This document shows, in pieces, positions 71-49,970 of a DNA stretch of 64,000 bases. The notes beneath the pieces were generated by a model that searched no databases, was not told where the DNA came from, and was given only the letters and a program-made list of their open reading frames with translations. Numbering within the stretch: position 1 is the first letter of the stretch; each line of letters begins with the position of its first letter. Made by a program: the position numbers and the translations under genes. The DNA lies in the IMG/VR virus record IMGVR_UViG_3300044511_000090, positions 1 through 64,000 of that record; one strand, written 5' to 3'. Source of the stretch: a virus.

Positions 71-108
71 TTGACCAATTGCAGCCGCAACGATAGCCTG
101 CAACCATG
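71..108 (+). promoter_or_regulatory. sigma70-like promoter, probably leaderless, for terL
   Basis: TTGACC(71-76)-N17-TAGCCT(94-99)-N6-ATG(106); no SD upstream. Confidence 0.55.
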
Positions 109-3100
109 TTAAGCTCCTCAGACATTGCAGAACTTGAAGCCTATCTGCCGCACGCTACCGACGAAGAGAAGCGGCAAATCAATCAGCACCTTCTCTCGAT
201 CCGCAAAGTCGAAAAGAACTTCCCTTGGGCCGCTTACAGATACGACCCCATCGGCTACGCATACAACGTCCTCGGCCTCTCGATGCTCACCGAAGATCAA
301 AAGACGGCATTGAGAGCCGCCGTAACTCCGCCGTACATGGTCAAGATCGATTCAGGAAACTCGTGCGGCAAAACGCTGATTTGCGCCGTGCTCGTGAACT
401 GGCAATATGACTCCTACAATCCAGGATGCGTTTACACAACGGCCCCGTCGTCGTCGCACGTCAAGCGCGTGCTCTGGGCTCAAATACGAGACCTCAGAGC
501 CAATGCAAAGATCAATCTGCCGCAAGACTTCATTGGCCCGGCAGCGCCGGAAATGCGAAGCGACCCCAACCATTTCGCCATTGGCCTGACCGCAGATAAA
601 GGAGAAGCGATAGCTAACAGCGAAATCATCTACACACCTTCTGGTAAGAAAAAATTCGGAGACATTGCCATAGGAGACATGGTTTTCGCCTGCGATGGCT
701 CTCAAACAAAAGTGACGCATGTTTTTAAGCACTATGGAAGAAAAATTTACAAAGTAACCCTAGTAGATGGTAGGTGTGTTCGTACTGACGGGGACCACCT
801 GTGGAGCGTTATCAACCACAACTACGGCAAATACAAAACTTTCAGGCTGATGTCAACCAAAGAGATGCTGGAAACTGGCGTAACATATGGGGCAACAAAT
901 AGGCCGAAGTATTATTTGCCAACATGCGGGGCGCTGTCGTACAAGCACAAAGAAACAACAATTCCAGCATACACTATGGGGGTATGGCTTGGAGATGGGA
1001 GCTCCAGCGACAGTTCAATAACTTCTGGAGACGCTCAAATGATAGAGCTTCTCAAAAATGACAATCCGAATTGTGGCATGACGGTCAGGACTCCTAAAAA
1101 CAGGAACGCCAGCTTGATACGAATTCTTGGAATGCGTTCAAAGCTGAAATCCATTGGTATGCTTACTTCAAAATGCCGAACTAAAAGAGTCCCAACAGAA
1201 TACATGGACAACTCCACAGATGTCAGGCTAGGAGTGATCCAGGGGCTGATGGACACAGATGGGTACATAAGCCCAAATGGGACAACAAGTTTTACGTCAA
1301 CAAGCCCAGGCTTGATTGAAGACATGATGTGGCTTGTCAGATCACTTGGCGGCAGAGCATCATTAAACAACCTAGTTGACATTAAAAACGAACGATCACA
1401 CCCTTGCTACACAATGAACTTTATTCTTCCTGGATTCAGTTGCTTTAGGCTAGACAGGAAAAAACGCAGGGAAGTAAACAGAGACCGCCGAAGGGCCGCT
1501 ATTAAATCGATAGAAGAATGCGGGGTTGAAGATACTACGTGCATAAGAATCGAGCACGAAAGCAGTCTTTTTGTTATCGGAGATGGGATCGTCACCCACA
1601 ACTCCCTCAAGGGCTCTCACTTGGCGCACATGGGGTTCATTTTTGACGAAGACGAAGGATTGGGGCAGATGTATTGGGACTCGGTGCGAACCATGTTCAA
1701 GCCGACTCCAGGAATGTTCTGGCTCACGGTAGGCAACCCGTCAACAGTAAGCAGCCCTGCCTATCTCGAATCCATTCGCACGACGGACGACGGCAAGCCG
1801 ATGTGGCGCAACCTTCGCATGAGCGTGCTCGATCACCCAAACATCATTGCCGCCAGCAAGGGGCTTCCGCCTCCAATCCCCAAAGCTGTGACGGCAGAAC
1901 AGGTCGATGTCTGGGTCAAACGCCTATGCACTCCGCTTGAAGACGACGAAGAACATCGTGTCACAGACTTCCAGTGGAGAGGCAAATGGCATCGGCCAAG
2001 CGGCGAAGGCGAAACAGTCATCCTTGGTCGTCGCCCATCAACAGGAGCTTCCGGCGTCTGGTCGGACGCCCTCTGGGATGCCTGCTGCCGCCTCGAATTG
2101 CCCTTCCCAATCGACGAAATGCCCGAACTTGGCTGTGACGTGGCCAGAGTGCTTGGCGGCGATAATTGCGACATACATGCCCAATGGGGCGGCAACTCCA
2201 TCGCCCATGACTCAGCAAATGGCCGATCCATACCTGCTACAATCGCTCGGCTCAAGGAAATGGCCGAAGAGGTCTGCGAGTTTGCAAATGCCAAACGCAT
2301 CGAAATCATCAAGAACAGCAACTTAGAGCCTGAAGAAATCGCACGCGCCATGATGCACAAGCCGTGGATTCCCAAACAAATCCCCATCAAGATCGACGAT
2401 TGCGGCATCGGCAACGTCATCAGCGACTTCAAGGACGGCTGGAACTTCATCCCGGTCAATCCAGGCTGGGCCGCAAAGATGGACCTTCGCTATCCGAACG
2501 TCAGAAGCGAACTATGGTTCGAGACTATGGAAAAGGCCGTCCTCGGCGGCTTGAGTCTGCTCTACTTGCCGGAAGACGAACGGCAGATGCTCCGCATCCA
2601 GGCTTTCGCGCCAACATGGAAGCAGAACGAACGCCGAATGCGAGTTGTCGAGTCCAAAGAAGACACGAAGAAAAGACTTGGCCGATCACCGGACTGTTTT
2701 GTTGCTGGGACAAAAATCAAAACAATCAACGGAAACAAGCCAATCGAAGAAATTATGCTTGGCGAACTCGTATACACACGAAACGGATGGCATCCGGTTA
2801 TTGGGCATGGGCAAACTGAAGAAACCTCTGAAACCGTAATTGCGTCATTTTCAAACGGAGAAACGCTTGAAGCATCTCCAAACCACCCTGTTTTTGTTGA
2901 CAATAAAGGGTGGGTTCGTATCGACGCATTGGCACTGTCTGATAACATAGTCGAATGCCACAACCACAAGTTACTGTCGTGTTCAACGGGATCACTTTCA
3001 TCAGGTTCCCTGAAAGCAAAAGCGAATCTTCTCGAAAGTATTTTTACCCGTTTGCTAACAACCGAAGACTCAGTGGAATTGGCGCTCTTCATCAGGCTGT

Positions 3101-3876
3101 TTGGCGGCATCACCACGGCGAAATACCACCAAAACACGATATTCACCACGTTGATGGAAACCCTCTCAACAACGATATTTCCAACCTTGAGTGCCTCACA
3201 AAGAAAGATCATGCTGAAAGACACAGAGGCACATGCTCAGAAAGGAAGAAAGCGAACCTCGACAGGATACGCCATCTTACCAAAGAATGGCACTCAAGCG
3301 ATGAGGGAAGAAAATGGCATTCTGAGCACGCTAGGAAATCTTATGAGTCCAGAGTTCCTGTCGTCAAAACATGCGACCAGTGCAGCAAAGAATACAAAAA
3401 CTTTTCTCGCAGGGAAACAGACAGGTTTTGCTCATCTAAATGCGCTCAAAAATGGTATTACAGACATAAAACAATGTTTGTTGAATCTTCTTGCCCTGAG
3501 TGCGGAATCAAAACTAAAAAGCAGCCTGGGCGCGGCAAGAAGTGCTGCTCTCAATCATGTGGTGCGCGTAGAAGGTGGAGGCTCAAAAAAGAAGGTGTTC
3601 AATCTGACAGTTGATTCTGAGCATGAGTATTTTGCAAACGGAATACTCGTACACAATTGCATGGACGCCTTCAACTTGGCCCATTTTCACGCCAATTTCG
3701 GCTCTCCAAAGCTCATATCTATCGAGACCGGCGTATCTCGCGCAAGCAAAACGATGGGCGCTCGCATCGGCATCGGTGGCATCGGCCAGCGCGGGTCACA
3801 ACCAGCTGCTGACCGAGGCGAAGAACCGCCGCGAAGGGAAGAAAAGCGATCACTTTGGGGAAAGAACAGGCGGTGA
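106..3876 (+). CDS. terL: Terminase large subunit interrupted by two inteins
   Basis: Walker A SGNSCGKT, Walker B FIFDE, GNP coupling motif, nuclease LGCDVAR, and C-terminal SPD/CMDA once the inteins are removed. Confidence 0.92.
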   Translation: MLSSSDIAELEAYLPHATDEEKRQINQHLLSIRKVEKNFPWAAYRYDPIGYAYNVLGLSMLTEDQKTALRAAVTPPYMVKIDSGNSCGKTLICAVLVNWQYDSYNPGCVYTTAPSSSHVKRVLWAQIRDLRANAKINLPQDFIGPAAPEMRSDPNHFAIGLTADKGEAIANSEIIYTPSGKKKFGDIAIGDMVFACDGSQTKVTHVFKHYGRKIYKVTLVDGRCVRTDGDHLWSVINHNYGKYKTFRLMSTKEMLETGVTYGATNRPKYYLPTCGALSYKHKETTIPAYTMGVWLGDGSSSDSSITSGDAQMIELLKNDNPNCGMTVRTPKNRNASLIRILGMRSKLKSIGMLTSKCRTKRVPTEYMDNSTDVRLGVIQGLMDTDGYISPNGTTSFTSTSPGLIEDMMWLVRSLGGRASLNNLVDIKNERSHPCYTMNFILPGFSCFRLDRKKRREVNRDRRRAAIKSIEECGVEDTTCIRIEHESSLFVIGDGIVTHNSLKGSHLAHMGFIFDEDEGLGQMYWDSVRTMFKPTPGMFWLTVGNPSTVSSPAYLESIRTTDDGKPMWRNLRMSVLDHPNIIAASKGLPPPIPKAVTAEQVDVWVKRLCTPLEDDEEHRVTDFQWRGKWHRPSGEGETVILGRRPSTGASGVWSDALWDACCRLELPFPIDEMPELGCDVARVLGGDNCDIHAQWGGNSIAHDSANGRSIPATIARLKEMAEEVCEFANAKRIEIIKNSNLEPEEIARAMMHKPWIPKQIPIKIDDCGIGNVISDFKDGWNFIPVNPGWAAKMDLRYPNVRSELWFETMEKAVLGGLSLLYLPEDERQMLRIQAFAPTWKQNERRMRVVESKEDTKKRLGRSPDCFVAGTKIKTINGNKPIEEIMLGELVYTRNGWHPVIGHGQTEETSETVIASFSNGETLEASPNHPVFVDNKGWVRIDALALSDNIVECHNHKLLSCSTGSLSSGSLKAKANLLESIFTRLLTTEDSVELALFIRLFGGITTAKYHQNTIFTTLMETLSTTIFPTLSASQRKIMLKDTEAHAQKGRKRTSTGYAILPKNGTQAMREENGILSTLGNLMSPEFLSSKHATSAAKNTKTFLAGKQTGFAHLNALKNGITDIKQCLLNLLALSAESKLKSSLGAARSAALNHVVRVEGGGSKKKVFNLTVDSEHEYFANGILVHNCMDAFNLAHFHANFGSPKLISIETGVSRASKTMGARIGIGGIGQRGSQPAADRGEEPPRREEKRSLWGKNRR
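607..1602 (+). mobile_element. Class 3-type intein with LAGLIDADG endonuclease (332 aa)
   Basis: Starts with Ala (AIANSEIIYTPSG); TDGDHLW block B, TTCI block F, IVTHN/S end (W-C-T triplet); GVWLGDGS and GLMDTDG dodecapeptide motifs. Confidence 0.88.
2695..3657 (+). mobile_element. Intein (321 aa) with an out-of-frame HNH gene in its endonuclease slot
   Basis: CFVAGTKI start, ASPNHPV block B, VFNLTV...YFANGILVHN/C end. Confidence 0.9.
2955..3614 (+). CDS. HNH homing endonuclease with C-terminal Cys-rich repeats, nested in an alternate frame
   Basis: LHQAVW..HHGEIP...IHHVDGNPLNNDISNLECLT...H; CxxC/FCSxxC motifs; TGnTAACAT-N6-ATG upstream. Confidence 0.85.
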   Translation: MPQPQVTVVFNGITFIRFPESKSESSRKYFYPFANNRRLSGIGALHQAVWRHHHGEIPPKHDIHHVDGNPLNNDISNLECLTKKDHAERHRGTCSERKKANLDRIRHLTKEWHSSDEGRKWHSEHARKSYESRVPVVKTCDQCSKEYKNFSRRETDRFCSSKCAQKWYYRHKTMFVESSCPECGIKTKKQPGRGKKCCSQSCGARRRWRLKKEGVQSDS

Positions 3877-26100: not shown

Positions 26101-28704
26101 CGGGCGATCCGACGATCAGGTTTGCGGCCATTGCTTGATGAATCGCATTCAACAATCGTGCGACCACAACGAAATGGTCGCAAACAACAGCCAAACTCAT
26201 GCGTGGCGCTGTGCCAAGTGTGGGTACGTCTACGGAGGCCAATAATGAGATTCCAACTGTATGGCGCAGCAATCATGTCGATGGACTTTGCCGACATTAT
26301 GAAGTTGGCAAGAGAAACGATGGACATGCACGCCAGAGTTGAAGATTGCAATGGCGTGTATGTCGAAGTAGCGAGGTGGAAGCACCTACGAGAAGACTAC
26401 GACGGCAAGCAAGGAGTATGGATGCGGTTTGCCTACCTTCATGTCGAAGGCGGCGAGCATCTTTCACGCGAAATTCAAGAGTTATCGACGCCGGACATGG
26501 TTTCTGCGTATGAAACCGCCGAGCATATTGCCGGTATGATCAACGCGGCGTCTAAGAACAGGTATACCAGGATCATTCACGGTATGCCAAACTGGAAGGA
26601 TTGATCATGCTGACACTGAAGTATTACGGAATGGAAGGGACCGGGCGCAACGTGACCGAGGCCAAGAAGAATGCTGGCCACAAGATCGAGAAGGCGTTGT
26701 CCGGCGACTACACCCCTTTAATCCTCGTTTGGCGCGACCATGCTTACCTAGTCTACCGCGATCCAGAATCTGGCTGGCGGTCGAGACTCATCGCCGATGA
26801 TGAAAGCGGTATCTGCGCCGGACCCGTTTGGGGAACAATTTCGCCTGACGGAGACGACAAAAACAAGATTGTTGCGGATTGCAAGTTGCATCTGGCTCAA
26901 CTCGGCTGGGAGGAAAATGATGGGAAAGAGCCGCCGACGATACTGCCAAATAGCCACCACGGGGATTTCATCGAATGGGCCGAGTTCCAGTTGCGATACA
27001 AAGAAGCACGCAGACGCGGCATGAGCGACAACGATGCCCACAGCTACGCACTCAGGAATCCACAACGGCCTGAATTGTGGAAAGAGGAGGAAAAAGTATG
27101 ATTTCTGACACTCTATCCGATGCGTGCCACGGCATCATCGGCTACGTTCGCCATAGCGCAACTAAACTTTGCTATGAAGGCATCGAACGAGAGGTTCGCG
27201 GCCTTGTGACAATCATGGACCACGCCAGAGCGTGCCTGGATTCACCAATGCCGCCAAGAAGATCGTTTCTTTCGGCGGACCTTCTACGGAAAGTTGCCGA
27301 AGCATTGGACAATCCAGAACTGCCGATGCCGACCGTTGACTATTGGGAATAGGCGCGACGTGCGCCTATTATTCTTCTCTTAATGGAGCAAGCAATGACA
27401 AAAGTATCTCTGTTCAAAGGCAATCCAACCATCACGCTGAACCCAGACGACAAGTGGCCGTTCAGTTTCGGCTTGCAGAAGGCCAGACTGGTTCTGGCCA
27501 ACATCGAAGCAATCAAGAAGTTCGTGGCCGATTTTGAAAGCAAGAAACAATTTCCAGGAGAGCAAAATGATTCAGTGGAACAAAACAACGGAAGCTGAGT
27601 ACAGCCGCTCGCTTGGAGTGTTGCCGCCAGCTTCATACGGCGCAAATGGATCATTCCAAGTTGGCGAACCGTTCAGCCATCGCAACGGAGAGCCAACATT
27701 TGCCAGCTTCAAAGTGATGTTCGGCGAATACTACCAGTCGGATGAGCCGCTTACCTTCGATGAGTTCCGCGAAGAAGTCGGCGATGCCGAGTATTACTAC
27801 GAGGGCTGACGTGACATTCGCTCACCAAAAAGGCGACAAATACTTGATCACCGGCTACTACTACAACACCGGGATCAAGTTTCGGCTAGTGCGGTTCAAC
27901 CCATATGCCGCACTCTCAATCAACCTGTGGCGAGGCAAGGTGTGGCATGTTCGCGGCAAGAAGCGAACCCTTGTCAAAGAGGTTTATAACTAAGGAGCAT
28001 CAATGATCGCTGTCGAGATTCCAAAACTTCAAAGTTTCGCAACTCTTGCCGAAACAATGGCAAGAGCCGAAGAGTTGATTGTCGAACTGTCAAAGAAAGG
28101 AGAAGAAGTCGTGGCTTCGGCAATTTACGAAGACTTTTTGACAAAGCCGAAGTCAAGAATGATCAAAGTGCTTGGCGTGTCTTCCCAGGCATCGAGGGAA
28201 GCTAACTCGGTCGCTCCAGGCGGGAAATGGTGTCTTCACCATGAAATGGTCGGCGGTGGCAGACATCGATTCATGGCGTGGTACTCCAGATACCTTATCT
28301 ACGCTTGGGCAATGTTCCAATGCGAAGACGGTTTTGTGGCGATAGGGGTAGATTTTGAATCGATCAACGCTTACTACCGAACATGCCAAGGCTTCAACTA
28401 CCTTGGACAAGGCGACATAGAAGGACTGTTTTCGGAGGAGTCTGACCTTCAACTGTATGAGGAAATTTACGACGCATCGATGAAGATCAGGCCGCCAAGT
28501 CTGCCATTTGACGAAGCGTACCAACCGGCATTCTGCTTTGTGGCATATCAGAGGCCGGACCTGTTCCACGAGGCAATCATGAAGTGCCGTGGAACGAAGG
28601 AAGGATACTTGGCTGATTGGCGAGTCAAGCATCTGTCCAAGGTTTCGGAAATGATCGGGCGTCCGGTCCCAGGTTTCGTAACAATCAGAACACAAGGAGC
28701 ATGA
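23146..28704 (+). other. Run of about 16 tightly packed small hypothetical early genes
   Basis: Consecutive SD-led or overlapping plus-strand ORFs (e.g. 23146-23652, 23619-24020, 24022-24354, 25157-25702, 26601-27101, 28003-28704). Confidence 0.7.
27348..27370. repeat. AATAGGCGC-N5-GCGCCTATT palindrome (copy 1)
   Basis: Contains the TAG stop of the upstream gene. Confidence 0.85.
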
Positions 28705-28706
28705 CA

Positions 28707-30248
28707 ATGTCGTTGATGATCGAAAAATTCAAGGCAGCACGGAAAGCCTCTGTGCCGCTTATCGCAATCACCACGCCGGACTATCCGGCAACAGTCAAGG
28801 CAGTGTCAGAGGCGATGAAAGAATATCCACTGATTCAGCATGACCTGATTCGTGGGTACACAGCAGTCAATGAGGCTGGCCAAATGGCAATGGATGACCT
28901 TGGGCTGGACAAGCCAATTGATGAAAATGAACCAGAAATCACAAACACAATCTCCAAAACTGGGAACCCGGCTGAGGCATTGTCGTTTGCGTTGCAATTG
29001 CCGGGAGACTCTATTTTGTTCTTCCACAATGCACAGAGATACATCGGCAACGAAGCCGTGTGCCAAGCCATAATGAACCTGAGAAACCCATTCACAAATC
29101 CTCGCAGAACTCTGGTCATGCTGGCGACATCCATTGAACTGCCGCCAGAACTAATGCAAGATGTTCTGGTGCTTGATGAGCCGCTGCCGGACTCAAAACA
29201 ACTGGCAGAGGTTACAAAAACCTGCTACACATCATTCAACAAGGAGCTTGCGAGCAAAGGGATGCCGACCCTCAAAATACCAGAGGGCCGAGACATGGAA
29301 GCAATCACAGACGCTCTGACAAGTCTGGCGGCGTTCCCGTGCGAGCAAGTCGTGTCAATGAGTCTGTCAAAAGATGGCATCGACACAAAATCCCTATGGG
29401 AGAGAAAATACAAGACAATCGAGCAGACTGATGGCTTGTTTGTCTACAGGGGGAATGAGACATTCGACGACATCGGCGGCGCTGAACAGATCAAGAAGCG
29501 TCTCACTCGGATTATGACCGGCAAGAAGCGATGGAGGTGCGTTGCTTGGGTTGACGAAATCGAGAAGTCGATTGCTGGTGCGACTGGTCCTGTAGGAGAT
29601 AGCTCAGGAACTTCACAGTACGCACTTGGCAAAACTCTGACCGAGATGCAGGAGAATATGTGGGATGGGTTTTTCGGAGTTGGCCCAGGCGGAAGCGGCA
29701 AGAGCCTAATTGCCAAGGCTATCGGCAACACATTCGGCATCCCAACTTTCATTATTGACTACGGCGCTATGCAGGCATCGCTTGTTGGCCAAAGCCAGCA
29801 GCGAGTTTCTGCCGTAATGAAAATACTCAAGGCTGTCGGCGGGGACGGTGTGTTTTGGGTTGCGACGTGCAACAAGATCAAGGCCATTCCGCCAGAACTG
29901 AAGCGGCGATTCACGAAGGGCATCTACTACTTTGACCTTGCATCCGAAGAAGAGAAGAAAATGTTGTGGTCGATGTACTTGAAGAAGTACAACCTCGAAG
30001 AACAGAAGATGCCATGCGACGACGGGTGGACCGGGGCCAATATCGCCGCCTGTTGCCGCAACTCGTGTGAAGAAGGTGTCAGTATCTTGGAAGCCGCCGA
30101 GTCCATCGTGCCAATCACCAAGAGCGACCCTGAAGGACTCACAGAGCTTCGGACGATGGCAAATGGCAGATTCCTGAGCACAACGCATCCTGGAGCGTAT
30201 GTGATTCCGAAAGTGGAGAAGAGGTCTTCCAGAAAAATGGAGGTTTAA
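28707..30248 (+). CDS. Ycf46-like AAA+ ATPase with swapped Walker segments
   Basis: LPPEL, DIGG, VAWVDEIEK (29541) upstream of GPGGSGKS (29682), VATCN, PPELKRRF, GWTGANI. Confidence 0.85.
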   Translation: MSLMIEKFKAARKASVPLIAITTPDYPATVKAVSEAMKEYPLIQHDLIRGYTAVNEAGQMAMDDLGLDKPIDENEPEITNTISKTGNPAEALSFALQLPGDSILFFHNAQRYIGNEAVCQAIMNLRNPFTNPRRTLVMLATSIELPPELMQDVLVLDEPLPDSKQLAEVTKTCYTSFNKELASKGMPTLKIPEGRDMEAITDALTSLAAFPCEQVVSMSLSKDGIDTKSLWERKYKTIEQTDGLFVYRGNETFDDIGGAEQIKKRLTRIMTGKKRWRCVAWVDEIEKSIAGATGPVGDSSGTSQYALGKTLTEMQENMWDGFFGVGPGGSGKSLIAKAIGNTFGIPTFIIDYGAMQASLVGQSQQRVSAVMKILKAVGGDGVFWVATCNKIKAIPPELKRRFTKGIYYFDLASEEEKKMLWSMYLKKYNLEEQKMPCDDGWTGANIAACCRNSCEEGVSILEAAESIVPITKSDPEGLTELRTMANGRFLSTTHPGAYVIPKVEKRSSRKMEV

Positions 30249-30250
30249 CA

Positions 30251-30565
30251 ATGCCTTGCGATACGATTCAACTGAACAAGGTTTCCATCAAGGCCGCAAA
30301 TCGCGGTCTACTTGGGAAAGCGATTGAGGCGCTTGGCTACAATGCCAAGATGCTGAACGACGGCACTATTGTCTTCACTCACAAGGGGAGGCAAGTCAAA
30401 GTCACCGATTCGGGAGTCATTGTACCTGTTGGCGAAGAGGCATTGGCCGACAAAATCAAGACTGCGTATTCGGCAGAAGTGCTGAAGGTTGCAACTCAGA
30501 AATTCAGTTGGGGAATGCTGAAAGGCAAGAAAGCCAACACCTATACACTTGTAAGGAGATTCTAA
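30251..30565 (+). CDS. DUF1257/Ycf35-like protein
   Basis: LL.KAIEALGY...IKTAYS..V......F.W; position after AAA. Confidence 0.55.
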   Translation: MPCDTIQLNKVSIKAANRGLLGKAIEALGYNAKMLNDGTIVFTHKGRQVKVTDSGVIVPVGEEALADKIKTAYSAEVLKVATQKFSWGMLKGKKANTYTLVRRF

Positions 30566-30777
30566 TGTTTGGCAAAGCTGACAAAATTGAAGTCGAAATT
30601 CTTGCCGATGGTACAATCAAGATCACAACCGATCCAATCTCGCCAGCAAACCACCGAAGCGCTGACGAGTTGCTTGAATTTATTTCAAATCTGACTGGTG
30701 GAGAAATGACGAGAACGAGACGGCCAGACAAGAAGGGGCATCTGCACAAGCACGGCAATCATTGGCATTCGCACTGA
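30565..30777 (+). CDS. DUF2997-like small protein with His-rich tail
   Basis: IEVEILADGTIKITT...; TAATG coupling. Confidence 0.55.
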   Translation: MFGKADKIEVEILADGTIKITTDPISPANHRSADELLEFISNLTGGEMTRTRRPDKKGHLHKHGNHWHSH

Positions 30778-30822: not shown

Positions 30823-31722
30823 ATGCAGTACCAGACTCTGTTGAACGTATTCATTGTTTTCTTGGAATCGGCAAAGTCTGAAGACAAGCCGACCGTCGAG
30901 GGGGTGAAAAAGTCTTTGAGAGAAAACGGATTCAAAGACGAACACGCAGAACCAATTCCACGCGGCACAGCGTTTGGCCGGGTCGTCCAGTCAATGGCTG
31001 GCAAGGACGATGATGGCAATGTCATCAAGGCGTCCAGTTTGAAGGCCAAGGAAGAAGGCATTGTCCGATGGCAATTGAATCTTCTATCGGCAGAAGAGAA
31101 CGAGAAGATTCGCGCGACGTGGACTGCTGGCTGGTTCATGCGAGACGATGAGACCATTCAGGCAATCGATGGATCGCCAGACATCAACGCCGCTGTCTCA
31201 CGCGCAGAGATGGAGTATGAGCCCGGCGACATCACCAGCATATTTCGTTCAGTTCTCAAGGACGAAGGCGATGGGTCGTATCCGATGCGTGACGCAGTTT
31301 GGTGTGTCCCAACTCGCGGGAGCAATCTTCTTGAGAGGCTTGGCAAGGTGGTCGGCAATGCCGGTAGGACTCTTATGGTTTGCCCGATCTTCGACACCGG
31401 CGATGGCAAAGAAAAGTTCGCTGTCCTCAAGGCAATCTCAACCGGCATCGACCAAGAGATTGAGGCCCACAAGAATGCTATTGAGTCCTACGTTGCTTCG
31501 ACAAAGCCGGGCATCATCGAGAACCGCAAAGACGCAATCAAAAACACCAGGAATCTTATCGGCAACCTGACAGAGCACATCGGCGAATCGAAAGTCAAAG
31601 AGTTCAACACTGTTCTTGATGGCCTCGATAGCATGTGCAACACGGCAATCAGCGTGGCGGAATCGGCACGTAAGGCCGGTCTTGCTGGAGCAGGCCGAGG
31701 ACGGCAAATCAAGATCGACTGA
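30823..31722 (+). CDS. Hypothetical protein, possibly DUF3150/DUF6744-like
   Basis: Long ORF following the AAA module; YPMRDAVWCVP. Confidence 0.55.
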   Translation: MQYQTLLNVFIVFLESAKSEDKPTVEGVKKSLRENGFKDEHAEPIPRGTAFGRVVQSMAGKDDDGNVIKASSLKAKEEGIVRWQLNLLSAEENEKIRATWTAGWFMRDDETIQAIDGSPDINAAVSRAEMEYEPGDITSIFRSVLKDEGDGSYPMRDAVWCVPTRGSNLLERLGKVVGNAGRTLMVCPIFDTGDGKEKFAVLKAISTGIDQEIEAHKNAIESYVASTKPGIIENRKDAIKNTRNLIGNLTEHIGESKVKEFNTVLDGLDSMCNTAISVAESARKAGLAGAGRGRQIKID

Positions 31723-34469
31723 AATGTGGCGTTGCAACAAATTGTGCCGATCACAACAGGAGAACAGAAATGAAAACAATCAAGTCACAATCACGGAGTA
31801 TAAGCGATGATTGAAGTCACACTCAATTCGTGCTGGACCATCGTGTTCTTGAACAAGAGCCACAATAAACCCACGCCAACGGTGTGGGTCTGTACGAACC
31901 ATGATGCTTGGACCCGTGGCATTCAGATGCTGGAGAAGATGAAGCACATTGAAATCATTCAGCAAGGGGCATCACACGTCAAATCGTGAGCAGGGGAGAA
32001 CTGACATGAGCGAACACACTGCCAGTTTTGACGCGCTAATCGGCCACTGGAACGGCGCATGTTACGAGACAAGCGAACGCACCAGAGACGAACTAGAAGC
32101 CGAAGTAATCAAGAATCAGAAAGGGTAGGTCATGAAGATAGTTATTAAGCCAGAACTATTGGCGCAAAGCAAACTCCGTAAATGCACGCTTTCGGAGTGG
32201 ATGCAAAGCCAACTTGGGGAAATCGCCGCCCTGAATGGCGACGCGCTGCTTTATTACTACGAGGATGCTTTGTGGGACATAATCGGCTGGTCCCGTGACC
32301 TGTCAGCCGTCATTGTTGAACTCGGCTTGGGGGAAACCAAGACATTCCCAATACAACCCGGCGAGACATTATACTACAGGTGAATGAGAGCCCCATGAAA
32401 CGGACGTGGATTGTTATTGTTGAGCAAGGGTTTGGTCACGAGTTGCACAACAGTATCAGCGACTCGGAATGGTATGGCCCATTTACCGAGACTCAGGCAA
32501 AAAATCTTTCCAAAAAGCTGAACAAAATCTTGGCCGATCCAAATGACCGAGAACACCCAGTTGCTCAAGCAATGCCGCTCAAGGGCAGGCTAATCAGGAG
32601 CATCATAAAGGAATACTACAAGGAGATATAAATCGATTACTGAGATACAATCGCTTCTGGTTCTGGAACAAATTTTGGAGCAACCATGCCATATGCAACC
32701 GAAGCTCGTGAATGCCGGACTCCAAGCAACGGCGCTGTTTGCAGAAAATGCAAACAGGTTTTCCATCAAATGATGTTCATTCATTTCAGGAGGTCAACAG
32801 ACGATGCACAATGGGTCTGCACCGGATGGGAATGCTTTGACTGCGAGAGGAAGACTGACAATCAGGGAACTGCTGGCATCCGAAACGCTCGTGGAGGCGT
32901 CGAGAAAAGCCGCAAGAATGGCAGCAGATGCAGCCAACTGGTGGGAAGTGTCCGATATGCTCGGTCACATGGACGCCATCGAACTGATTCCGAACAGGAC
33001 ACAATTCGACGACGCGCCGAGCCTAGTTTCAAAGAAACGGATTGCAGACTTGCTGATAATCAGATGGAAGGGGCGACAGGATCGGCGAGCTATGGATGCT
33101 GCCAGAGAATCGGCACGCGAAGGATACATGGCACACATGAGAAAATGCGGAATGTCTGCCAGCAAAGCGCAGTTGCGGCAAATTGACTTGTACCTGCAAA
33201 GTAAGTTTGAGATTCCGGCAATCTAGTGGCAGTGATTCGATTTTTCACAGTGGAGAACTGACATGAACGAGAGCTTAGATGCAAAAGTCAAGGCGATAAA
33301 CGACGCCCACCAATATGCGATGGAACTGTACGACAAACTGTTTCCGATCTTTTCCAGGCAGCTAGGCAACAAGATTATCAAAGCCGATGGATCGCTATTG
33401 GCAAAGGTTGAGAAGCTACTGCCAGAACTTCCGTTTTCAAAAACTCTCGAAGTCTACTACGTCAAAAGATACCATTTGGTTCAATGGGGAATCAAGACAT
33501 CCGAGGCGGTCAAAGGTAACTACTGGGAAACAGTCGATTACTCAACCAATTGTACTGTCGGAGAACTAAAGGGGAACGTCTTGACGAAGATTCGCATCCG
33601 TCCCCAACTCCGCTCAGACTACACAACTGCGGAAGTTCTGGCGAACCGCAAGGCATACGAAGAATCTGTGGAAGCCACAGAAAAGGCGAAGGATAAGCTG
33701 TGGCCATTCGGCGAGTATGACCACTAAGCGACGGCTGACCAGCACGTTGCCGAGCGTCCTGTCTGGAACTGATTACAGGAGACAATCTGTGAAGATTCGC
33801 AACGAACTGGTAGAAGTCTACATTCGCCGCGCTCGAATCCAATTCGAGGATTGCGACCACGAACACAGTACCGGGAAAGAAGTGCGAGAGCACGCAAACG
33901 CATGGGCGGCGGAATGCACGAAGATTCTGGCAGGCAAAGGATTCGTTTGCGATGTGGAAGCAGATTATAGCAAGGACTGTGACAAGTTTTTCATCTGCGT
34001 CTCCGTAGGTGATCTGGAAATCTTCTGCAACTGGCGCGGGTCGCTGAAGCAGCTGACACCGGCACAATCGCGGTTCATCACGACGATCCTGGAATCGATC
34101 AACGAGGCTGATGATGCGGGCCGCGAAACTGCGCGGGCGTGCTGCTACTAAGGACTATTCGGAATGCATAGGAGCAACGAAACATGAAAAGGCTATATGT
34201 TGGATTGTTCGATGACGGCAAGCGAGAAGTGTTCCGATCAACCGCCACGCCTACGGCTGAATCGCATGGTGAGAAGTATGTTGCCGTGATCGGACCATTC
34301 CGCACGGTTCGAGGCGCTAACTTCATGCGCGATCATGGGCAAGGGAATCCGCACTGCCAATGCGTGTCCGATGCCGAACGACTCGCCATTGTTCGATAAA
34401 CTGATCGTCTTTCGCTCCTGGCATTGTGCCGGGAGCTTGTTCTGGAGCGGATTACTAAGGGGAAATGAA

Positions 34470-35453
34470 ATGAGCACGAAGTCACCAGCAAACAAGCTCC
34501 GAAAAATCGCATCGGGGATGCCTGAAAAGGTCGCGCACCTTCTCAGGCCGATGACACAAAACTCAACGCCAAAGCGACAAAGAGAGTACGCCAGCAGGTG
34601 CATCGACGGCAACAACATGGAAAGGTGCAGGCTGGCAATGCTGGCGCTCGCGGACGCATGGGACAAGGGGACATTGCCGCCGATATTGACAGATGTGAAG
34701 ACCAAAGACCAGATTTATACTCTCGTCAGGCACGGCACGAATTCAGCAGGCCATTACAACATCTACTCGACGAACGAATTCGTTGACAAGTCGGAGGCGG
34801 GCAAAGCGCTCCAAGAATTGTTCACATCGTTCATGGGAGAGGCGGATAAAAAGCGGCAAGAGGAATCCAAGAAACAACAGGAACTCGACCGCCTTCTCGA
34901 CCGTGTTCGGTACGCACAAATACCAGGATTCTTCCCAACGCCAGCAGGACTTGCCGACAAGTTGATTAAGGCGGCTAAGATCGAGGCAGGAAACACGATC
35001 CTTGAACCGTCTGCTGGAATCGGATCGCTTCTGGATGCGTTGCAGCGATTCCCGCTGGATTACATGGGCGGCTTGACAATCGTGGAAGTCAACCGGACTC
35101 TTGCCGACATTCTCCAGGCCAAAGGGTACACGGTAAACTGTGTCGATTTCCTTGAATTCACAGGCCAGACGTTCGACCGGATCATTATGAATCCGCCTTT
35201 TGAGAACATGCAGGATGTGGATCATGTTCGGCACGCCTACGAGTTGCTGAATGATGGAGGCGTACTGGTGGCCATAACCTCGATGTCGTGGACATTCAGG
35301 AGCGACAACAAGGCGCAGCAATTCAGGGAGTTCCTGTCGTTCGTTGGCGCTGAAGTTGAGAACATTCCGGCAGGGGCATTCAGCGGCGCAGCGGCGTTCA
35401 GGTCTACTGGAGTTGTGAGCAACATGGTCACTATTAGGAAAGGTACAACATAA
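34470..35453 (+). CDS. Adenine DNA methyltransferase-like protein
   Basis: GFFPTP, ILEPSAGIG, IIMNPPF. Confidence 0.85.
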   Translation: MSTKSPANKLRKIASGMPEKVAHLLRPMTQNSTPKRQREYASRCIDGNNMERCRLAMLALADAWDKGTLPPILTDVKTKDQIYTLVRHGTNSAGHYNIYSTNEFVDKSEAGKALQELFTSFMGEADKKRQEESKKQQELDRLLDRVRYAQIPGFFPTPAGLADKLIKAAKIEAGNTILEPSAGIGSLLDALQRFPLDYMGGLTIVEVNRTLADILQAKGYTVNCVDFLEFTGQTFDRIIMNPPFENMQDVDHVRHAYELLNDGGVLVAITSMSWTFRSDNKAQQFREFLSFVGAEVENIPAGAFSGAAAFRSTGVVSNMVTIRKGTT

Positions 35454-47315: not shown

Positions 47316-49970
47316 ATGGCAGATGTGACCCTTTTTGAAGAAAAAGCGCCAATGCTTCTTGGTATCACTCCAAGAGAATACCAAATAGAGGCTCACGACA
47401 ATTCGCTTCGTCTTTTTGGCGAAGGAATTCCAGGCGTACTTCTCAGGATGGCAACCGGGTCTGGCAAAACACTAACCGCGTCAATGCTGGCAAGGACATG
47501 GCTTGGAAGAGGCGACGATTACCGCGTGATGGTCATCAGTTATGAGACTCAGCTTGTTTGGCAGTTTGCCAAAGAAATCGAGAGTTTCATCGGTGTCCAG
47601 CCTGGAATAGAAATGGAGAAGAACAGAGCGGATTCGTCTAACAAAATCGTCGTTGCTTCTCGCCAGTCGCTTTTGCAGCACCCTGGGCCGACAAAAGAAC
47701 AGGCCGATGAGTTGAAATCACTCGGCGTCACCGAACTCGGATGCTCAACGAAGAAGATGGCAGAATCGTACTTGAAGTATCTCAGGAAGGGGATAAGCGT
47801 TGATGATGTTTTGGCCGACATAGAGACAAAGAATCAACAACCAGAGGCATCGAACGGGAAATGGAGCAGGGTCCACAAGTTCGATTGGCGGCTCAACTGG
47901 CTTATATTTTCCGATGAATGCCACAGGTTCGCGTATCATCTCAAATCGGTCAATCATTGGGTCGAATGGTTCGAGCAGAACCCAAACTCGAAGCGAGCAG
48001 GGCTTTCAGCCACACCTAAAAGATCAGATGGCGTGTCTATCGGAAGCCGGATGTTCCCCGGCATCGCAATAGACTACCCACTGTTCAGCAGAGAAGGCAG
48101 ATGCGCACTGAGAGACGGATACGCCGTGCCGTATGTCCAAAAATACATCGAACTTGAAGGCGTTGATTTCAAGCAAATCAAGAGGGTGACAGAAGGAGGC
48201 GACTTCGATGAATCAGCGCTTGAAAAAGCCCTCATGGAAGACAAAGAACTTGCCGGGCTCGTTGATCCGCTTCTTGACATGGTTGGCGATAGGCCGACTT
48301 TGATTTTCAATCCAGGCGTTGAGATGGCAAAGAAGGTTGCCAGATTCATCAATGCCAGATGCGAAGCAAAATGCGAATGCGGACAAATACGCTGGTATCC
48401 CAAGCAACTTGTCGGGGACGGCGCAACTTGCGAGTGCGGAAGATTCATCATCCAAGAAAACATCACAAAGAGCGGCGATCAGGCCGTCGAATTGGATGGC
48501 GAAGTCCCACACCAAGTCAGAGATGAGTATTACAGAAAGTTTGAAGAAAAGAAGTTCCAGTTTTTGTCAGTATGTGGCCTGTGCATTGCTGAAGGAACTT
48601 TGATATTGACAGATGTTGGCGATGTTCCAATTGAAGACGTTACAACCCACATGAAGGTTTGGGACGGGGTTGAGTTTGTTTCCCATGATGGTGTCATATT
48701 CAATGGATTTAAGCCGGTCATAGAATATGCCGGATTAAGAGCCACTGAAAACCACAAAGTATTGACAAAAAGCGGGTGGGAAACAATAGCAGAATGCAAA
48801 AAAAATGGAACGCCGATTGTTATTGGGCAGCTTATGAAGTTGCCAGTCCAGTACAGCAAGGAATCCGATTTTGTATTCAGAGACCCAGAACAACATGAAC
48901 AACAGCCTGAACATGCTACAGAACAATCGAACGTCTATGACATCTTGAACGCTGGTCCTAGACATCGTTTTACAGCCAATGGGCTTCTTGTATCAAATTG
49001 CAGAGAAGGCTTTGATGTCCCATCAATCGCTTGCGTAGCCGTCTTCAGGCCAGTCAGCAAGAAGGCGTCATCACTTGCAGAGCAAATGAAGGGGCGAAGT
49101 TGCAGGCCGCTCAGGGAAATAGCGAGAATCCTTCACACTCTTCCAACGCCAGAAGACAGAAGGAAGCTGATCGAAGAAAGTGAAAAGCCCAATGCGCTTA
49201 TAGTTGACTTAGTAGGAATAACCGGCCTTGCAGACTGTGCTTCGACTGTTGAAATCTATGCCGAAGGTCTTCCAGACGAAGTAATCAAACGTGCAGAAGA
49301 CATTCTATCCGAGAAGGGGAAAGACGAAGAATTCGATGTTCAAGAGGCAATTGATCAGGCAGAAAAGGAAGACCGAGAGGCCAAAGAGAAAATTCGGAAA
49401 GAACGAGAAGAGTCTGAGCGACGGGCCAAAGAAGAATTCGAGAGAAGGGCTCAAGCGGACCCGCGTGCCAAATACACGACCTATGACAAGGGTATTGGCT
49501 CTCAGTACGATCCAAACGAGGCAAGCGAAGGCCAATACAACTTAATCAAGTCTCTTGGGATGGAAATAGGCGACGTTATCAGCAAGCGGAAGGCCGGAAG
49601 AATAATCAATATGCTCAAACAGCGGACAAACCCATCAGAAGTTGCGTACAAGAACGGCATTTCTTCATGGGAACCGACTCCGCCTAGCCCTAAGCAATCA
49701 TACGCCTGCAAAAGACTTGGATACGATGTATCGACTTCATACGAAGCCAGCCAGATACTATCAGCGGCAAGGAAGCCGCAAGAATTCAAAGCCAAGAAAC
49801 TGGCTGATATCCAGAATGCCAAGAACGACGGCGATCTAACAGCGGTCGGCATGGATATGAAACTCGTCAGGAGAATATGCCCGCCAGATGTGTGGGCTGA
49901 GGTTGTTTCGGCTGGCGCAAGAAAGAGGCAAGAACTCAAGAGTATTAATTCTGACGATATTCCAGAATAA
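47316..49970 (+). CDS. SF2 DNA helicase with mini-intein
   Basis: ATGSGKT, DECH, GLSATP, EGFDVP, QMKGRSCR. Confidence 0.9.
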   Translation: MADVTLFEEKAPMLLGITPREYQIEAHDNSLRLFGEGIPGVLLRMATGSGKTLTASMLARTWLGRGDDYRVMVISYETQLVWQFAKEIESFIGVQPGIEMEKNRADSSNKIVVASRQSLLQHPGPTKEQADELKSLGVTELGCSTKKMAESYLKYLRKGISVDDVLADIETKNQQPEASNGKWSRVHKFDWRLNWLIFSDECHRFAYHLKSVNHWVEWFEQNPNSKRAGLSATPKRSDGVSIGSRMFPGIAIDYPLFSREGRCALRDGYAVPYVQKYIELEGVDFKQIKRVTEGGDFDESALEKALMEDKELAGLVDPLLDMVGDRPTLIFNPGVEMAKKVARFINARCEAKCECGQIRWYPKQLVGDGATCECGRFIIQENITKSGDQAVELDGEVPHQVRDEYYRKFEEKKFQFLSVCGLCIAEGTLILTDVGDVPIEDVTTHMKVWDGVEFVSHDGVIFNGFKPVIEYAGLRATENHKVLTKSGWETIAECKKNGTPIVIGQLMKLPVQYSKESDFVFRDPEQHEQQPEHATEQSNVYDILNAGPRHRFTANGLLVSNCREGFDVPSIACVAVFRPVSKKASSLAEQMKGRSCRPLREIARILHTLPTPEDRRKLIEESEKPNALIVDLVGITGLADCASTVEIYAEGLPDEVIKRAEDILSEKGKDEEFDVQEAIDQAEKEDREAKEKIRKEREESERRAKEEFERRAQADPRAKYTTYDKGIGSQYDPNEASEGQYNLIKSLGMEIGDVISKRKAGRIINMLKQRTNPSEVAYKNGISSWEPTPPSPKQSYACKRLGYDVSTSYEASQILSAARKPQEFKAKKLADIQNAKNDGDLTAVGMDMKLVRRICPPDVWAEVVSAGARKRQELKSINSDDIPE
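48582..48998 (+). mobile_element. Mini-intein (139 aa)
   Basis: CIAEGTLI...ATENHKV...VYDILNAG..HRFTANGLLVSN/C. Confidence 0.85.

Follow-up and report, generated by a model that had tools for sequence, protein, structure and literature searches.

In AAA+ ATPases, and in the wider ASCE class of P-loop NTPases, the catalytic motifs are assumed to follow one another along the chain in one invariable order, with Walker A first, Walker B second and sensor 1 third. In the stretch of viral DNA analyzed here (the window: 64,000 nucleotides (nt), positions 1 to 64,000 of the IMG/VR virus record IMGVR_UViG_3300044511_000090), a single open reading frame (ORF) raises the question of whether that order can be broken inside an intact ATPase core. 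The ORF (28701-30248, plus strand) encodes P0001, a two-domain AAA protein of 515 amino acids (aa) whose catalytic domain presents Walker B ahead of Walker A. Our answer is that P0001 is very probably a phage-borne AAA ATPase of the classical clade in which one beta-alpha unit has been relocated, derived from a normal-order Ycf46-like AAA protein. We further consider it likely that the family represents a natural and functional non-circular permutation in the AAA+ catalytic core, fixed once, carried by about a thousand phage and prophage clusters, undescribed in the literature, and including repeated moves of an arginine between positions 402 and 446.

Block order of the catalytic domain

The gene starts at an ATG that overlaps the TGA stop of the gene upstream (ATGA), and full-length homologs of its product exist. 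The N-terminal domain (aa 1 to about 245; 28701-29435) is AAA-like and degenerate, carries neither a P-loop nor the acidic residues of Walker B, and corresponds to D1 of tandem AAA proteins; this and all further features of the gene lie on the plus strand. The DIGG motif of the N-linker (aa 257-260; 29469-29480) precedes the ATPase core. It is followed by the relocated block (aa 280-322; 29538-29666), composed of strand beta3, a GD.SGTS loop and helix alpha3 ending in LTEMQE. The motifs of this block run as VAWVDEIEK...SSGTS...LTEMQE (aa 281-318), and the Walker B residues D285 and E286 of VAWVDE (aa 281-286, on beta3) are encoded at 29553-29558. Directly thereafter comes the Walker A block (aa 323-383; 29667-29849), which holds beta1, the P-loop GPGGSGKS (aa 328-335; 29682-29705), alpha1, beta2, the pore-loop-1 region with LVGQSQ (ending at aa 366; 29781-29798) and alpha2. 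Beta4, sensor 1 and the arginine pair occupy 29850-29909, with VFWVATCN (aa 384-391; 29850-29873) ending in the sensor-1 residue N391 (29871-29873) and the pair R402/R403 at 29904-29909 (R402 at 29904-29906); this part falls within the stretch that matches positions 373-495 of the normal-order model described below. An alpha-helical lid containing GWTGANI follows (29946-30200), in which A446 (30036-30038) of the TGA(E/D)I lid motif occupies what we take to be the position of sensor 2 in those AAA+ proteins that do not belong to the classical clade.

The initial annotation of this gene, made from the sequence alone, had reported the order DIGG, Walker B, Walker A, VATCN, and on the P0001 ORF the motifs were found in exactly that order. 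Its view that two internal beta-alpha blocks had traded places in frame with all motifs intact was right as to the exchange, but the blocks proved unequal, with one unit (beta3/alpha3, 43 aa) standing ahead of two (beta1/P-loop, alpha1, beta2 and alpha2, 61 aa). The canonical order with which it compared P0001, there called Ycf46-type, is that of normal-order phage relatives which JGI assigns to a "SpoVK/Ycf46/Vps4 family"; the comparison covers these phage relatives. The annotation had also called the rearrangement a non-circular permutation, and the comparisons below agree. A circular permutation, in which the old termini are joined and new ones opened, does not describe P0001, because collinearity with normal relatives is preserved in the N-terminal domain, in the DIGG linker and in the whole segment that begins with sensor 1 and ends at the C-terminus, and only two internal blocks trade places. 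P0001 contains the Walker A pattern GxxxxGK[ST], and a strand within that domain carries a Walker B of the form hhhhDE; the motifs do not succeed one another in the usual sequence of Walker A, Walker B and sensor 1.

Profiles that assume the normal order broke up on P0001. Pfam AAA (PF00004) sees only 50 residues of the domain, its match (46 bits; cut-off 21.2) covering aa 327-377, which correspond to profile positions 4-54 of 131, whereas a normal-order relative used as a control covered positions 1-130 of 131. The 43-aa Walker B block by itself gave no Pfam match, a query of that length being too short. A hidden Markov model (HMM) built from 121 normal-order relatives matched P0001 in three cleanly non-collinear pieces, each with an independent E-value (i-E) of about 1e-8 to 1e-9: aa 263-319 corresponded to model positions 317-369, aa 323-373 to 272-322, and aa 384-488 to 373-495. 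This split alignment, which the annotation had proposed as a check, gave the same three-piece, out-of-order pattern in the relatives P0003 and P0017 and in gp103 of Tunturiibacter phage Tunturi_3. In the converse direction, a profile of the rearranged family searched against all PDB sequences tiled the D2 domain of p97 completely and out of order, with profile segments 227-251, 298-350, 252-298 and 358-437 falling on chain residues 271-295, 312-364, 367-414 and 415-500. The relocated block corresponds to p97 residues 367-414.

Pairwise comparisons led to the same picture. Normal-order examples include Rhizobium phage RHph_I4 EVC24_084, Pseudomonas phage UF_RH6 orf118, Rhodobacter phage RcTiptonus gp60, Mycobacterium phage Corndog gp96 and Streptococcus satellite phage Javan368 QBX09687. 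With Javan368, BLAST alignment of P0001 was collinear over aa 16-490 except for the swapped blocks; the N-terminal domains aligned, and the Walker B block of Javan368 fell in a gap. All homologs of Javan368 found by search were 82-99% identical to it, which made them too similar for a normal-order profile of any diversity. With RcTiptonus gp60, native P0001 gave two high-scoring segment pairs that were out of order. When aa 280-322 and 323-383 were exchanged in silico, BLAST scores against five normal-order phage proteins rose by 33-55 bits (from 80.5 to 135, 74.7 to 120, 74.3 to 121, 56.6 to 89.7 and 53.5 to 97.8).

Annotation resources gave P0001 no informative name. PHROGs places it in phrog_8638, "unknown function", and scans with NCBIfam and PADLOC yielded no specific family and no defense-system assignment, with only weak generic AAA matches (CdvC, IteA/IetA, CDC48, FtsH) that all fall on the Walker A block or the lid.

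Fold and active site

A rearranged chain of this kind has to fold, and the annotation had judged the topology feasible. An AlphaFold2 (AF2) model of P0001 computed from a 116-sequence alignment supported this, with a mean predicted local distance difference test score (pLDDT) of 95.2 and a predicted template modeling score of 0.88. The rearranged region contained no weak segment, the lowest 10-residue block (83) being the loop after Walker B. The modeled elements are a helix at 262-272, the Walker B strand at 280-284, helices at 287-295 and 304-318, a strand at 322-327, the P-loop, a helix at 334-345, a strand at 349-352, a helix at 362-380, a strand at 384-390, a helix at 398-403, a strand at 408-410 and the lid. 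With Foldseek and VIA-align the whole model matched p97, Cdc48, AFG2, NVL and Rix7 over both domains (Z about 18); since these are tandem AAA proteins, the N-terminal 245 residues are read as a degenerate AAA-like domain. For the C-terminal domain alone, VIA-align against p97 D2 (3cf0_A) gave Z 16.6 and a root-mean-square deviation of 2.4 A over 201 of 248 residues, and because the aligner is order-dependent the unaligned remainder is about one block in size. By this indirect evidence, and that of the couplings below, the domain would have an alpha-beta-alpha fold with a parallel sheet in the order 5-1-4-3-2.

Coevolution was examined by mean-field direct coupling analysis (DCA) of aa 245-440 in 261 family sequences (effective number of sequences, Meff, 230). 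The maximum score was 4.9, compared with 1.6-2.3 after column shuffling. The top coupling, C280-G380, joins the start of the moved strand to the end of alpha2, positions which in normal-order proteins are covalent neighbors at the former alpha2-to-beta3 junction. Pairs between beta3 and beta4 (I287-A388, D285-T389, A282-W386, V284-W386), between beta3 and beta2 (A282-I352) and between beta1 and beta5 (G326-F411) were obtained together with many alpha3-alpha2 pairs, and I258-L336 and A261-G333 tie DIGG to the P-loop helix. The couplings above about 2.3, and so beyond the shuffle null, include C280-G380, I287-A388 and D285-T389; A282-W386, V284-W386 and A282-I352 lie below it. By coevolution the moved strand is flanked by beta2 and beta4, the neighbors that it has in a normal AAA sheet.

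In the explanation that we favor, beta3 with its Walker B and alpha3 (aa 280-322) would have left its place between alpha2 and beta4 and come to stand between the N-linker and beta1. The fold would remain an ordinary alpha-beta-alpha sandwich with the sheet order beta2-beta3-beta4-beta1-beta5, and three loops would be re-routed, namely those leading from the N-linker to beta3, from alpha3 to beta1 and from alpha2 to beta4, all at the sheet edge opposite the nucleotide site. The breakpoints do fall in the loops that immediately precede beta3, beta1 and beta4, on the side of the sheet that is remote from the nucleotide. From what is known of AAA topology the crossovers would keep their direction, so that each helix can stay on its usual face. 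As only three loops would be re-routed, and these away from the nucleotide, the ATP site would be made of the usual residues, namely K334 and S335 of the P-loop, D285 and E286 of Walker B and N391 of sensor 1, with R402 and R403 contributed by the neighboring subunit. The strand on which the upstream domain pulls would then be that of Walker B and no longer that of the P-loop.

Residues 280-322 might instead complete the sheet of the neighboring subunit, giving a domain-swapped ring. Coevolution is blind to the difference between contacts within a chain and contacts between identical chains, and the alpha3-to-beta1 and alpha2-to-beta4 loops are only about 3 residues long. The corresponding loops of normal-order relatives (alpha3-to-beta4 and alpha2-to-beta3) are, however, about equally short, no sequence feature resembling a long hinge was seen, and the AF2 monomer forms the sheet in cis with a pLDDT of 97-98 across the block and its neighbors. 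We therefore regard a swap in trans as improbable.

The protein might also be an inactive pseudo-ATPase or scaffold, its motifs relics and the rearrangement tolerated because catalysis no longer mattered. The N-terminal domain is indeed already degenerate, and the aromatic residue of the pore loop is mostly lost. Against this stand the residue counts of the 261-sequence family alignment, whose median identity to P0001 is 42%. K334 of Walker A, serine or threonine at 335, an acidic residue at 285, E286 and the sensor-1 residue N391 are each kept in all 261 sequences, R403 and G260 of DIGG in 260, and R402 in 246; A446 of the lid motif TGA(E/D/N)I is kept in 229. P0001 likewise has the sensor-1 Asn, the arginines of the second region of homology and a lid of the G.(S/T)GA(D/E)(I/L) type without the sensor-2 Arg. 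Retention at 261/261 or 260/261 of every catalytic residue, at about 40% overall identity, is hard to reconcile with loss of function, as is the replacement of Arg402 only where Arg446 appears. Two intein-bearing homologs, P0255 (896 aa) and P0299 (861 aa), point the same way, the intein lying in the P-loop (between GPPG and SGKS) of one and in sensor 1 (between AT and CN) of the other. By these alignments the active site is under selection, and a pseudo-ATPase is very unlikely.

The exchange between positions 402 and 446 was followed further. All 15 sequences without R402 have R446, and none has both or neither (phi = -1 in a phi-coefficient search of the 261 sequences). On a FastTree tree built without these two columns the state switched at least 13 times. 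Since the two arginines are mutually exclusive and have switched repeatedly, it appears that either the arginine pair or the lid can supply one arginine; it looks like a single phosphate-contacting arginine that moves between the pair and the sensor-2 place. In classical AAA proteins the arginine equivalent to R402 acts on the ATP of the neighboring subunit. If R402 acts in the same way here, the toggle would fit a normal inter-subunit ATP site. If the permutation reading is true, these moves of one gamma-phosphate-contacting arginine, between the pair of the neighboring subunit and the lid of the same subunit, would constitute a built-in natural experiment.

At its C-terminal end the family carries an Arg-containing tail, in which R511 is invariant in a 13-sequence alignment (A1) and more than 90% conserved in the 116-sequence alignment (A2).

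Spread of the family and origin of the order

A homology search with P0001 returned 233 full-length matches at 37-66% identity, and an exhaustive search of the representatives of 50% identity clusters returned 1044 clusters at E<=1e-30, so that the relatives sharing the arrangement number from hundreds to about a thousand. Among the best 150 clusters nearly all aligned as a single collinear full-length stretch, and the two that gave two stretches were the intein-bearing forms. Of 121 family matches, 120 could be scored and show Walker B, Walker A and sensor 1 in this order, as do another 143 of 143 family sequences (142 representatives and Tunturi_3 gp103), which makes 263/264; the single unscored member, P0115, has the same Walker B-first order in alignment A1. 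Normal-order relatives had Walker A first in 121/121. The Walker B-first order is far beyond chance.

The family was found in 56 IMG/VR viral contigs and in at least 369 stretches of contigs from species-representative bacterial genomes (metagenome-assembled genomes, MAGs). Among the 80 genome loci listed, most belong to Acidobacteriota, with others in Nitrospirales, Armatimonadota and Myxococcota. Some of the bacterial contigs that carry the family are several Mb in length, and the genome-contig copies are taken to be prophages. A cultured podovirus, Tunturiibacter phage Tunturi_3, encodes the family member gp103 (PMC11924767); the ATPase is not discussed in that paper. Full-text searches of the literature found no account of Walker B preceding Walker A in the core of an AAA+ or other P-loop protein, and no relevant description of a non-cyclic permutation.

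An assembly or sequencing artefact, whether a chimeric contig or a local rearrangement in this record, has in its favor that the source is a metagenome-assembled and incomplete virus contig (74 kb, 67% complete). The same order is nevertheless present in 263 of 264 relatives that were assembled independently and are 34-67% identical, as well as in a phage that has been cultured and sequenced completely. The stretch was moreover present in eight lake-water metagenome runs. Run-level contigs from runs not flagged as the source sample cover the junctions at 29538, 29667 and 29850 with 0 differences and no joints; X6, X7 and X8 are free of that flag, and only X6 bridges all three junctions with at least 31 letters on each side. 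Because the order is common to independently assembled relatives and the junctions are covered without differences, misassembly is excluded, and we give an artefact practically no credence.

Scarcely more credible is that the upstream DEIEK is a convergent acidic motif of independent origin: short acidic motifs do arise easily, but here a whole block of 40-50 aa matches the normal-order Walker B region, from the strand through DE and the GD.SG.S loop to a helix ending in MQE, with an i-E of about 2e-8 against the normal-order HMM and 51% identity to RcTiptonus gp60 over 39 ungapped aa, and since alpha2 extends to aa 380 and beta4 starts at aa 384, no space is left between them for a further unit.

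The rewired order is taken as the derived state because every other AAA+ protein compared has the normal one, and a single origin is argued from breakpoints that are identical across the family. On the relocation reading the rewiring would have arisen once and then been kept under strong purifying selection in a large family of mostly phages and prophages. A plausible route would be that both blocks were duplicated and the outer copies then lost.

Gene module and known systems

Two small genes follow the ATPase on the plus strand. The first (30251-30565) starts 2 nt after the ATPase stop and encodes a DUF1257 (Ycf35)-like protein of 104 aa, whose BLAST-linked family was found in 22 loci; Pfam DUF1257 matches 10 of the 32 members of alignment A4, which merges two BLAST clusters. 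The second (30565-30777), whose ATG overlaps the preceding stop (TAATG), encodes a DUF2997-like protein of 70 aa with a His-rich tail; its family was found in 39 loci, with Pfam DUF2997 matching 9 of 28 members (best E 5e-18). By these start/stop overlaps and the 2-nt gap, the ATPase and its partner genes are tightly packed. In Tunturi_3, gp102 (DUF1257) and gp101 (DUF2997) are both above the Pfam cut-offs. Adjacent DUF1257 and DUF2997 genes are therefore present at the level of the family. The same two partners lie 3' of the normal-order ATPases of RHph_I4, where both are annotated as such in GenBank, UF_RH6 and RcTiptonus, which argues that the rewiring arose inside an existing module.

Two forms of the DUF2997-like partner were seen in alignment A3. 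The one recognized by Pfam contains Cys, and the other, which includes the window copy, has NH where the first has its Cys region, and ends in a His-rich tail (HLHKHGNHWHSH). The His-rich tail of the window protein suggests metal binding. A search for DUF2997 in five host genomes gave two extra loci (L143, G004:C1:240500-252500; L144, G003:C3:1873500-1885500), one in each of two Nitrospirales MAGs whose rewired ATPase is encoded at another site. No neighboring gene with AAA Walker motifs was seen at either, so neither provided a normal-order comparator, and a control match in Synechococcus elongatus yielded no locus.

Downstream of the module a gene of 299 aa (30823-31722, +) holds the place of a DUF3150-like gene of about 300 aa found in 29 related loci. 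It was rejected as a DUF3150-like relative, having no relation detectable by BLAST or hhalign. In the closest relative (ATPase 66% identical) a DUF3150-like gene follows the module (L001:8100-8993), and it shares with the window gene only the last residues (RQIKID). Elsewhere in the window, a 1256-aa ORF (106-3876, +) matches terminase-large-subunit PHROGs in three stretches (aa 162-500, 860-943 and 1127-1193) and may be interrupted by an insert or intein. A DNA-methyltransferase-like gene (34335-35453) and an 884-aa helicase-like gene (47316-49970) lie downstream of the module on the same strand.

With respect to function, P0001 is most likely a ring-shaped remodeling motor, which would hydrolyze ATP and, working with its two small partners, act on a substrate that is a protein or a nucleoprotein. 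Several points weigh against the account as a whole. The aromatic residue of pore loop 1 is mostly Leu (L 190, F 20, I 20 and Y 12 in the 261-sequence alignment), so that substrate threading may differ from that of textbook AAA unfoldases. The window's own two partner proteins have no Pfam match and are tied to their families through BLAST-connected relatives. The sheet order is read from AF2 secondary structure, a sequential structural alignment and a DCA of low depth (Meff 230). The single origin, finally, is argued from identical breakpoints in one collinear alignment, not from a rooted tree with many normal-order outgroups.

If the relocation reading holds, its consequences are general. 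Given a large family that keeps its active site with three re-routed loops, the AAA fold would tolerate non-circular rewiring. Domain models, annotation pipelines and structural aligners assume a fixed order, and order-dependent profiles can be expected to under-annotate rewired AAA proteins. Because rewired and normal-order relatives share partner genes, they form a natural comparison pair for studies of folding and allostery. In Tunturi_3, which grows on Tunturiibacter psychrotolerans, a cultured phage and its host are on hand. The family is also relevant to what the Ycf46/DUF1257/DUF2997 module does. Ycf46 has been described as the AAA ATPase of a stress-induced cyanobacterial operon, with a reported KaiC interaction (PMC13683863), and DUF2997 and DUF1257 (ycf35) are clustered in cyanobacteria, where the neighbor is a ferredoxin and not an ATPase (PMC4284462). 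Compared by description, cyanobacterial and plastid Ycf46, Ycf35 and DUF2997 are the same three protein families as in the window module; the cyanobacterial findings on Ycf46 do not transfer directly to the phage.

Other known systems differ from P0001. The type II AAA proteins (p97/VCP/Cdc48, AFG2/DRG1, NVL/Rix7) are its best structural match over both domains and its best sequence matches among solved structures, and share the same catalytic residue set. Unlike P0001, they bind nucleotide in both domains, have the normal chain order and carry N-terminal adaptor domains. The circularly permuted GTPases YlqF/RbgA, YjeQ/RsgA and YqeH, the nearest precedent, are natural P-loop NTPases in which the motif order is changed, to G4-G5-G1-G2-G3, and the fold kept, by a circular permutation that moves the chain termini. 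In P0001, by contrast, termini and flanks stay fixed and an internal unit is relocated within an AAA+ (ASCE) core.

Also among the closest known systems is the normal-order "Ycf46-like" AAA (COG0464). P0001 has its two-domain layout (about 500 aa), in which a degenerate AAA-like domain at the N-terminus is joined to one active AAA domain. The resemblance extends to overall length (about 500-570 aa), to an LVGQSE-type pore loop, to DEI(E/D)K followed by GD.SG.S and (T/W)MQE, and to the ATxN sensor 1 and TGA(D/E) lid. The normal block order, present in all other members examined, is where the two part. The Ycf46-like AAA runs Walker A, Walker B, sensor 1, and the window family runs Walker B, Walker A, sensor 1. 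The N-linker of the window family is also shorter, RR stands where the normal-order proteins have RRGR, and the residue at the aromatic position of the pore loop is mostly Leu.

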